The translations under genes and the position numbers were made by a program. Shown piece by piece: positions 18,272-19,948 of a DNA stretch of 41,825 bases (the stretch's first letter is position 1; the number at the start of each line of letters is the position of its first letter). The DNA comes from Kofleriaceae bacterium (lineage in GTDB: Bacteria > Myxococcota_A > Polyangia > Haliangiales > Haliangiaceae): assembly GCA_044230415.1 (NCBI GenBank), contig JBGARE010000037.1, positions 64,001 to 105,825 on the forward strand, given 5' to 3'. The notes below the pieces were generated by a model. It did no database searches, had not been told where the DNA came from, and saw nothing but the letters and a program-made list of their open reading frames with translations.

Positions 18272-19948
18272 TTGACTCGTCGTCGGGGATCGCAGTTATG
18301 TACGGGCATGACCGCTCCGACCACACTTCCGCGCGTCGTCGCCATCGGCGGCGGCAAGGGCGGTGTGGGCAAGAGCCTCGTCGCCGCGAACGTCGGGATC
18401 TTCCTCGCCACGCTCGGCAAGCGAGTCATCCTCGTCGACTGTGCGTTCGGTGCACCGAACCTGCACATCTTCGCGGGCGTGCCGCGTCCGCCGCGCTCGA
18501 TCAGTGAAGCGCTCGCTGCGGGCGGGCCGAGCCTCGCCGAGATCGCGGTGCCGACGCACGTGCCGGGCGTGAAGCTGATCGCCGGTGTCTTCGATCCGCC
18601 GTGGATCGCGGAGCCGGGACCGCAGTTCGTCCGCGTGCTGTGCGAGCAGCTCCATCAGCTGCCCGCGGACTGGGTCGTCGTCGACCTCGGTCCGGGCATG
18701 GCGTCGCCGACGCTCGAGCTGTTCCTCGAAGCGGACATCGGCGTGCTCGTGTCGGTGCCCGATCCCACGTCGATCGAGCTGATGCATCGCTTCGTGCGCG
18801 CGGCGTTCCTGAAGAGCCTCGACCGCCGTGGTCTCGGCCACCTCGCGAACACCGGCCGCGAACCTCGCGAGTACGAGGGCGGCACGCCGAGCCCGCTCGA
18901 CATCTGGTTCTCCGCCGTCGAGCGACAAGCATCCCGCGCCGACGCGCCCGAGCCGGGCTCGCGCACCGAGCTCGACGAGCTGCGCGCGGCGATCCTCGGC
19001 TTCCAGCCGCACCTCGTGGTCAACAGCGCGCGCAGCAAGAGCGACATGGAGCTCGGGCGCGCGGTCGCCTCGGTCGCGCGGCGCCGCCTCGGCTCCCAGA
19101 TCCGCTACCTCGGCCACCTCGAGTACGACGAGGCGGTGTGGGCCTCGACGCGCCGTCGTCGTCCCCTCCTCATCGAGCATCCCGAGACTCGCGTCGCGAA
19201 GTGCTTCGAGCGCGTCGCGCGCGGCCTGCTCGCGATCCGCGGCAATCGCAGCGAGGGCTCGGGCGCGATGGCGCCGCTCGACGATGCGCGCCACACCGAC
19301 GTGTTGCCCTCGGACTCGCACTACGAGCTGCTCGAGGTTCCGCCGACCGCGAGCTTCGAGGACATTCGCCGCGCGAACCGCCGCATCCGCGACATCTACG
19401 GTGCGGAGTCGATCGCGATCAGCGGCCTCTACGATCCCGCGAGCCTCGAAGCGGTGCATCGGCGGCTCGACCTCGCGTACACGACGCTGATGGACGCGGC
19501 GAAGCGCAAGGACTACGACATGGAGCTGTTCCCCGACGGCGTGCCCATGCCGATCGTGCAGCCGTCGCTGACCGAGCCGATCGCGCAGCGCGCGGCGGCC
19601 GTGAAGGTCGACGAGGTCGCGACGATCCGTCCACCGATGCCGGAGCTGTCGCCGCAGACGGACTTCTCGGGGCCACTCCTCCGCCAGATCCGAGAGGCCG
19701 TCGGCGTGGAGCTGCGCGAGATCGCGGAGCGCTCGAAGATCGGGATGGCGTACCTCCACGCGCTCGAGGGCGAGATCTTCGCGAAGCTGCCGGCGCTCGT
19801 ATACGTGCGCGGCTTCCTCGAGCAGTACGCGCGTGCCCTCGGCCTCGACGTCGAGCGCGTCAAGCAGACATACCTCGCACGCTATCGCGCCGCGCGCCCC
19901 TCGCCCGACGACGAAGACGAGCAGCCGCGCGATCGCCGTCCCACATAA
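18272..19948 (+). CDS. Tri-domain protein: MinD/ParA/FlhG-type P-loop ATPase (deviant Walker A GGGKGGVGKS) + DnaJ J-domain + C-terminal RodZ-like HTH (HTH_25/XRE).
   Basis: N-terminus VVAIGGGKGGVGKSLVAANVG...VVVDLGPG (ParA/MinD fold). Middle HYELLEVPPTASFEDIRRANRRIRDIY (J-domain helix II; the HPD tripeptide is not clearly retained). C-terminus LRQIREAVGVELREIAERSKIGMAYLHALEGEIFAKLPALVYVRGFLEQYARALGLD closely resembles the RodZ N-terminal HTH. The likely true start is the MTAPTT ATG at 18308. Confidence 0.85.
   Translation: MTRRRGSQLCTGMTAPTTLPRVVAIGGGKGGVGKSLVAANVGIFLATLGKRVILVDCAFGAPNLHIFAGVPRPPRSISEALAAGGPSLAEIAVPTHVPGVKLIAGVFDPPWIAEPGPQFVRVLCEQLHQLPADWVVVDLGPGMASPTLELFLEADIGVLVSVPDPTSIELMHRFVRAAFLKSLDRRGLGHLANTGREPREYEGGTPSPLDIWFSAVERQASRADAPEPGSRTELDELRAAILGFQPHLVVNSARSKSDMELGRAVASVARRRLGSQIRYLGHLEYDEAVWASTRRRRPLLIEHPETRVAKCFERVARGLLAIRGNRSEGSGAMAPLDDARHTDVLPSDSHYELLEVPPTASFEDIRRANRRIRDIYGAESIAISGLYDPASLEAVHRRLDLAYTTLMDAAKRKDYDMELFPDGVPMPIVQPSLTEPIAQRAAAVKVDEVATIRPPMPELSPQTDFSGPLLRQIREAVGVELREIAERSKIGMAYLHALEGEIFAKLPALVYVRGFLEQYARALGLDVERVKQTYLARYRAARPSPDDEDEQPRDRRPT

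Follow-up and report, generated by a model that had tools for sequence, protein, structure and literature searches.

ParA/MinD-type ATPases rely on a variety of partner proteins to organise bacterial cells. The partners that activate these ATPases are architecturally diverse and are encoded beside the ATPase (PMC7993993). In the MglA/RomRX polarity system of myxobacteria, RomX binds MglA-GTP (PMC13408092); depending on the source, the complex of RomX and RomR is described as the guanine nucleotide exchange factor of MglA (PMC9481161) or as an MglA effector (PMC13408092), and MreB is also counted among the effectors of MglA-GTP (PMC13408092). In Myxococcus xanthus, romX is MXAN_3350 (10.1101/2024.02.20.581209), and it is adjoined by MXAN_3349, a gene for a J-like domain and a helix-turn-helix (HTH). 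MXAN_3349 is one of 15 predicted J-domain proteins of M. xanthus and its expression drops on heat shock; it co-immunoprecipitated with both MxDnaK1 and MxDnaK2, as confirmed by split-nLuc (PMC11019930). Here, we analyzed 41,825 nucleotides of a Kofleriaceae bacterium (assembly GCA_044230415.1, contig JBGARE010000037.1, forward-strand positions 64,001 to 105,825), hereafter the window, in which one gene encodes a MinD-like ATPase, a J-like domain and an HTH in a single chain, directly upstream of romX.

The tri-domain protein is a fused ATPase–partner module. Its ATPase domain has a natural Asp-to-Ala replacement in switch I, its J fold lacks the HPD tripeptide, its HTH is of RodZ type but lies outside the RodZ topology, and romX is adjacent to its gene. 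The features of the locus are as follows; residue numbering throughout is that of a 546-residue protein.

18308..19948, forward strand: gene for the tri-domain protein (open reading frame (ORF) listing, exact match to protein P0001, ENA gene calls and start context).
18308..19243, forward strand: MinD/FlhG/FleN-like P-loop ATPase domain, residues 1–312 (Pfam, PDB sequence matches, Foldseek and a confident model).
18347..18376, forward strand: deviant Walker A motif GGGKGGVGKS, residues 14–23, which retains the signature Lys as well as the P-loop Lys (translation).
18437..18445, forward strand: switch I D-C-A, in which the first Asp is kept and the second, catalytic one (Asp40 of MinD, Asp60 of FlhG) is Ala (alignment to FleN and FlhG).
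18671..18697, forward strand: Walker B/switch II WVVVDLGPG, with a nearly invariant Asp126 (family alignment).
18830..19000, forward strand: family-specific helical insertion, ∼55 residues long, within the ATPase core, residues ∼175–231 (not aligned to FleN or FlhG).
19310..19528, forward strand: J-like domain with a four-helix J fold, residues 335–407 (fold, and profile match in relatives).
19400..19408, forward strand: G-A-E in place of HPD, residues 365–367 (family alignment).
19529..19657, forward strand: Pro-rich, poorly conserved linker, residues 408–450 (variable, gapped alignment; predicted local distance difference test (pLDDT) below 50 at residues 424–436).
19676..19858, forward strand: RodZ-type HTH_25 domain, residues 457–517, with helices reaching residue 529 (19894) (Pfam, and matches to CT009 and 3fym).
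20003..20269, forward strand: romX, encoding an 88-residue RomX orthologue, 55 nucleotides downstream of the tri-domain gene (phmmer E-value 1e-27 to M. xanthus RomX, PDB 8zna).

The earlier note on this DNA described a single protein of 558 residues with three modules. Pfam, fold and conservation all bear out the three modules. The ORF at 18272..19948 (+) is present and gives 558 residues if read from TTG; however, translation most likely starts at ATG 18308, giving 546 residues. This codon is the first in-frame ATG, it is also the start of P0001 (546 residues) and of the gene calls on ENA metagenome contigs, and the homologues begin to align at about residue 4–9. The G+C content of the window is ∼65–72%. 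The AlphaFold2 model, built with 55 homologues, has a pLDDT of 88.9 and a pTM of 0.75; it contains three folded units (residues 1–310, 335–407 and 455–529) with low-confidence linkers in between.

The nearest relatives are proteins from metagenome-assembled genomes of Kofleriaceae (Myxococcota), with 74–91% identity. When 1.84 billion representatives were searched exhaustively with HMMER, 350 clusters matched at E ≤ 1e-30. Many of these 50%-identity cluster representatives match over the full length in a single stretch, with 30–52% identity and all three modules together, which excludes a chance ORF or a misassembly. The phylogenetic distribution of the architecture, a check that the earlier note had proposed, was surveyed by scanning GTDB species genomes with a pattern from the trimmed HTH alignment. 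At least 599 loci were found, and the closest 80, which do not include Myxococcus, were retained; all 80 carry the fused gene and belong to Kofleriaceae, Haliangiales, Nannocystineae, Sandaracinaceae and Polyangiales. The tri-domain architecture thus recurs, and it is present in hundreds of Myxococcota species; Hoch_3643 of Haliangium ochraceum is one member. The family is large and visible in databases, yet it has no described function: in the literature searched, we found none for the domain combination, Hoch_3643, Q1D726/WP_011553383 or MXAN_3348.

The N-terminal module passes the Pfam cut-offs of both ParA (PF10609, 43.3 bits; cut-off 27.1) and CbiA (PF01656, 42.6 bits; cut-off 25.4). Its best PDB sequence matches are FleN, FlhG and MinD, and Foldseek aligned the predicted model to FleN, FlhG, MinD and Soj with a probability of 1.0 and target-normalised template modelling scores of ∼0.75–0.88, with values near 0.8 for FleN, FlhG and MinD. 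The deviant-Walker-A ATPase that had been proposed from the GGGKGGVGKS motif is therefore confirmed as a domain. Like FlhG, FleN and MinD, it possesses the signature Lys of Walker A, the first switch-I Asp and Walker B; different from them, it shares only ∼20% identity, has Ala for the catalytic Asp, contains the helical insertion and runs on into the J-like and HTH domains, with no flagellar or min genes nearby. The insertion carries a conserved G-x-P-x-P-x-D-L motif, in which Pro196 is conserved, and is predicted to form helices at residues 177–180, 196–209 and 218–231. No C-terminal amphipathic membrane-targeting helix of the MinD/FlhG type is present; in the model, the ATPase core leads straight into a disordered linker, and in lineages where the ATPase is a separate gene it terminates at the last core helix. 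No transmembrane segment was found in the protein either, the sole hydrophobic window being inside the ATPase core. Assignment as a true MinD or FlhG was rejected, given the missing membrane-targeting helix and scores of 49.9 bits against a cut-off of 212.9 for TIGR01968 and 55.4 against 201.75 for TIGR01969.

Switch I of the tri-domain protein reads LVDCAFGAPNL, compared to DADLG in FleN and DMDIG in FlhG. Engineered Asp-to-Ala forms of FleN (8pb9, 8p53) and FlhG (4rz3) outrank the wild types among the PDB sequence matches. Among the 168 relatives with at least 55% identity, every one has Ala or Ser at the catalytic position and keeps both Walker A lysines, whereas in more distant relatives the position is mostly Asp. 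Asp-to-Ala mutants of MinD, Soj, FlhG and FleN are the basis for predicting a nucleotide-binding, poorly hydrolysing dimer, the FleN and FlhG forms being hydrolysis-dead. As the catalytic Asp is Ala here too, hydrolysis is expected, by analogy, to be slow or absent, and the ATPase domain of the Ala/Ser clade is predicted to be a nucleotide-binding, poorly hydrolysing dimer. Lys17 and Lys22 are retained in essentially all relatives with at least 45% identity; below 38% identity, Lys22, the P-loop Lys, is absent in 28 of the 58 relatives. Many distant members (P0137, P0158, P0166, P0170, P0185, P0213 and others) have lost either the P-loop Lys (GVGTS, GVGAS or GAGSS) or the signature Lys. In alignment A1 the ATPase domain looks like a pseudo-enzyme in many distant members, and the J-like and HTH_25 domains remain conserved. 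Judged from these sequences, the family has departed from a fast ATPase cycle along several independent paths.

The middle module is a J domain by fold, and its relatives score above the Pfam DnaJ cut-off, so the J-domain segment of the earlier note is upheld. The HPD tripeptide, the retention of which was to be checked, is not there: the target has G-A-E, and none of the 296 full-length relatives has HPD at this site, although the third position is Asp or Glu in 239 of them. Stimulation of the Hsp70 ATPase by J domains needs both the His and the Asp of HPD; from its sequence, the domain is thus not predicted to stimulate DnaK in the canonical way. The equivalent position reads HAD in split-gene relatives of low G+C content and (A/S)PD in Myxococcaceae-like ones, so the degenerate site is traceable to a genuine HPD. 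The basic helix-II residues Arg354 and Arg355 are invariant among the closer relatives aligned (A2, A4), and canonical J domains have a shorter loop after the HPD position. J-like domains without HPD (pseudo-J domains) are known from Tim16/Pam16, NdhU and mitoribosomal mL77. These proteins represent unrelated contexts, and to our knowledge none of them is joined to either of the other two module types, a P-loop ATPase and an HTH.

The C-terminal module matches Pfam HTH_25 (PF13413) with 71.8–75.8 bits, at a cut-off of 24.6. The overlapping generic profiles are weaker (HTH_31, 24–27 bits; HTH_19, 22–26 bits; HTH_3, 11–18 bits), which leaves HTH_25 ahead by ∼45 bits; the domain is specifically HTH_25 and not a generic XRE fold. 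The closest solved sequences are the RodZ-type CT009 (4gqm) and 3fym. Within the family, the LPAxVYVRGF motif is invariant, and the aromatic pair Tyr499/Phe503 on HTH helix 4 is conserved. Of the RodZ-likeness that had been proposed, the HTH_25 domain stands and the rest does not: in RodZ, an N-terminal HTH is combined with a transmembrane helix and with a DUF4115 domain in the periplasm, whereas the HTH is C-terminal here, the protein lacks a transmembrane segment, and Pfam gave no match to DUF4115. Assignment as a true RodZ was rejected on this topology and on RodZ-model scores of 42.4 bits against a cut-off of 375 and 14.3 against 208.

In other lineages, the ATPase and its partner are separate genes. 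Metagenome contigs were searched with the published J-like sequence of MXAN_3349; a protein search with the 71-residue M. xanthus J sequence returned only a 42-residue fragment. Two Myxococcaceae-like contigs (L087 and L088) matched, with 85% and 76% identity. In L087, a gene for a MinD-like ATPase of 339 residues (GGGKGGIGKS, VDVDLGGANLH) overlaps by ATGA a gene for a 760-residue protein, in which a long repeat linker rich in Ala and Pro connects the J-like domain to a C-terminal HTH_25; a romX homologue comes next. The order ATPase, J-like+HTH_25 and romX is also present in L088. The linker of the L087 protein (4980-7262, forward strand, Ga0182745_1001147) is ∼550 residues in length and made of near-tandem repeats rich in Ala, Pro, Ser and Val, e.g. 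ASASEVAQPVAALPMPAV; at the equivalent place, the linker of the window protein has 43 residues only. A second split group comprises more than 20 low-G+C metagenome contigs (44–53% G+C), in which an ATPase ORF of ∼305–337 residues with fully canonical motifs is followed by a J-like+HTH_25 ORF of ∼205–215 residues.

In the split lineages, the two parts of the window protein are adjacent separate genes; the protein therefore joins an ATPase to its partner in a Rosetta-stone fusion. At the sequence level, the pattern of fusion and fission marks out the ATPase and the J-like+HTH protein as a putative functional pair. The split lineages resemble ParA-ParB, ParF-ParG, MinD-MinE, PomZ-PomX/Y and McdA-McdB in that a small modular partner gene comes directly after the ATPase gene, in some cases with translational coupling; as in those pairs, the partner possesses a short N-terminus that contains Lys and a domain capable of landmark binding. 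Different from them, none of the described ParA/MinD activators is built of J-like and HTH_25 domains, and the partner in the window is fused in cis to the ATPase. Given the Ala at the catalytic position, stimulation of the ATPase by the partner may be irrelevant here. MXAN_3349 shares the J-like pattern with the family, with ∼40–45% identity to the J-like domains; like the partner half of the window protein, it combines a J domain (SCOP a.2) with an HTH (a.35) and lies beside romX. However, it has no ATPase domain, which is a separate upstream gene in the Myxococcaceae-like contigs; its low-complexity linker is much longer, and it reads A-P-D instead of G-A-E at the HPD position. The composition of the partner, its fusion in cis and the linkage to romX are not described in the literature searched, whereas the ATPase itself is of a known kind.

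RomX of the window aligns near its full length to the M. xanthus protein (residues 9–88 to residues 7–87 of 8zna_A; phmmer). No terminator-like site lies between the tri-domain gene and romX, and a promoter and terminator scan of 18100-20400 found nothing; the two genes are probably co-transcribed, judging from their arrangement. In 58 of the 80 related genomes, romX lies on the same strand within 400 nucleotides downstream, and in 7 more it lies within 2.3 kb. Over the 58 genomes, the mean identity is 94% for RomX and 72% for the upstream tri-domain protein; RomX is thus conserved much more strongly than the genes around it. The adjacency is conserved over two myxobacterial classes, represented by Polyangia and the Myxococcaceae-like genomes. 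The earlier note had guessed at a role in cell polarity or shape; its polarity part gains independent support from romX being immediately downstream and from the conservation of this adjacency. As a whole the earlier interpretation holds in part; the replaced catalytic Asp, the fusion of two genes and the abundance of the family in databases had escaped it.

Upstream of the tri-domain gene is selA, the gene for selenocysteine synthase (16725-18185, forward strand), and downstream of romX is a gene for an rluD-type pseudouridine synthase (S4 and PseudoU_synth_2 domains; 20270-21265, forward strand). This block of selA, the tri-domain gene, romX and rluD is conserved in most Kofleriaceae and Haliangiales genomes. 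Two distant fused members with 38–39% identity (L084, 7626-9035; L086, 7593-8993) have a different conserved neighbourhood, with a gene for a ManC-like nucleotidyltransferase upstream and a PMT_2-type glycosyltransferase gene that overlaps the tri-domain stop codon. Neither these ManC-like and PMT_2 neighbours nor the QRPTase-like, radical SAM and thioredoxin neighbours of the low-G+C split pairs gave a functional clue. A response-regulator gene upstream of another distant homologue (L085) was considered as RomR and rejected, as its receiver domain is C-terminal and CheY-like.

The reading that we favour, with a probability of roughly 45%, is that the single-chain ATPase and J-like/HTH_25 partner acts as an ATP-dependent dimeric scaffold, slowly or non-hydrolysing, that is tied to the MglA/RomRX polarity module. 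From its motifs and fold, the N-terminal domain would bind ATP through the intact deviant Walker A and form a nucleotide-sandwich dimer. The Ala at the catalytic switch-I position would then make hydrolysis slow or abolish it, so that the protein would behave as a long-lived scaffold or switch and not as a fast-cycling oscillator. Dimerisation would pair two C-terminal HTH_25 domains and could thereby anchor the dimer to a landmark, which may be MreB, as in RodZ, or DNA, as for XRE proteins and type Ia ParA. The J-like domain, lacking HPD, would serve as a protein–protein interface that contacts the ATPase domain, DnaK or both, with no stimulation of the Hsp70 ATPase. As romX is directly downstream in Polyangia and Myxococcaceae-like genomes, the module may work with the MglA polarity system in Myxococcota; the adjacency is observed, and the functional link is the part we infer from it. 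A more far-reaching version is rather unlikely as it stands: the module would be an unrecognised part of the front-rear polarity machinery, in which the HTHs of the ATP-locked dimer tie RomR/RomX-MglA to MreB or to the nucleoid and the J-like domain is a regulatory interface, possibly read by DnaK.

Several observations weigh against the favoured reading. That the protein binds ATP and dimerises, and what its HTH and J-like domains would bind, is deduced from sequence and model. Distant members have lost the P-loop Lys, so nucleotide binding is dispensable in parts of the family. The Tyr499/Phe503 pair is a general HTH_25 signature and therefore does not show MreB binding. The romX gene is missing from the flank in 14 of the 80 loci, mostly those with at most 45% identity (Sandaracinaceae and Polyangiales), and it is not near the low-G+C split pairs, the neighbours of which are housekeeping genes; the core function of the module thus cannot depend on RomX. 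Where romX is adjacent, it is part of the wider selA-to-rluD block, so the adjacency could reflect inherited gene order instead of function. As for M. xanthus, MXAN_3348 is the presumptive ATPase partner by the synteny of L087 and L088, not by the M. xanthus sequence itself.

Three other explanations were weighed. The HTH-bearing proteins P1 ParA and F SopA act as repressors of the operons that encode them. By this precedent, the tri-domain protein could be a DNA-binding ParA-type protein with no specific link to RomX, the ATP dimer of which brings its HTHs together at an operator or at the nucleoid; it would be a transcriptional regulator or autoregulator, like type Ia ParA or FleN/FleQ, or a nucleoid-tethered positioning ATPase. 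HTH_25 belongs to the XRE-like HTH clan and is overlapped by the weaker HTH_31, HTH_19 and HTH_3 matches, the net charge of the HTH region is +3, the transcriptional antiactivator FleN is among the closest relatives of the ATPase, and in many lineages the module sits without romX amid housekeeping genes. However, the RodZ-type profile outscores the DNA-binding XRE profiles by the margin given above, no promoter-like site or repeated operator was seen in 18100-20400, and the romX adjacency is kept across two classes. Type Ia ParA proteins, moreover, have an N-terminal winged HTH and a parB/parS system, whereas the HTH here is C-terminal and of HTH_25 type; no parS-like or ParB-like partner was seen, and no ParB domain is encoded in the neighbouring genes. 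We regard this explanation as somewhat unlikely.

Less likely still is that the protein is a class C J-domain protein and as such a true, specialised co-chaperone of Hsp70, which brings DnaK to a place or client and uses the ATPase and the HTH as targeting modules. The J fold, the relatives above the DnaJ cut-off, the conserved basic residues of helix II and the usual Asp or Glu at the third HPD-site position are all consistent with it, as is the split-nLuc-confirmed interaction of MXAN_3349, a predicted J-domain protein, with both DnaKs of M. xanthus (PMC11019930). Nevertheless, a pull-down does not separate a co-chaperone from a client, HPD is missing in all 296 full-length relatives although its His and Asp are needed for stimulation, and the loop after it is longer than canonical. 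It is quite improbable that the protein is a RodZ-like morphogenetic factor which acts on MreB and cell-wall elongation, and hence on shape, apart from motility polarity. The MreB-binding element of RodZ is its HTH (PMC3599482), and the HTH_25 of the tri-domain protein has the aromatic pair on helix 4; but the transmembrane helix and DUF4115 are lacking, the HTH is at the wrong end of the chain, the RodZ models score far under their cut-offs, and mre, mrd and pbp genes are absent from the neighbourhood.

Several other ORFs of the window were recorded. At 4861-6609 (reverse strand), a 582-residue ORF encodes a periplasmic solute-binding domain of NMT1/phosphonate type and, at the C-terminus, an OmpA peptidoglycan-binding domain; this ORF adjoins an ABC permease gene (3646-4854) and a PspA/IM30 gene (6613-7452). 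The region is flanked by two separate gene pairs, at 11097-14913 and 24542-28400, both on the reverse strand; each encodes an NtrC-type, sigma-54-dependent response regulator together with a histidine kinase. A YicC-like endoribonuclease ORF (32420-33853, forward strand) has Pfam domains only from residue 184, and its start is probably over-extended; it overlaps a minus-strand ORF for a solute-binding protein (31774-33198). A full-length RelA/SpoT gene (HD, RelA_SpoT, TGS and ACT domains) is located at 36921-39242 on the forward strand.

A partner built of a J-like domain and a RodZ-type HTH is new among the ParA/MinD partners described in the literature searched. The stepwise natural decay of the catalytic Asp, the P-loop Lys and HPD across the family suggests, at the level of its sequences, a drift from enzyme to scaffold. 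The conserved site upstream of romX in two classes nominates the ATPase/J-like+HTH pair as a candidate in the MglA/RomRX polarity switch, and is relevant to how polarity proteins connect to the poles, to MreB and to chaperones. The finding would matter to the fields of myxobacterial polarity and of ParA/MinD ATPases.

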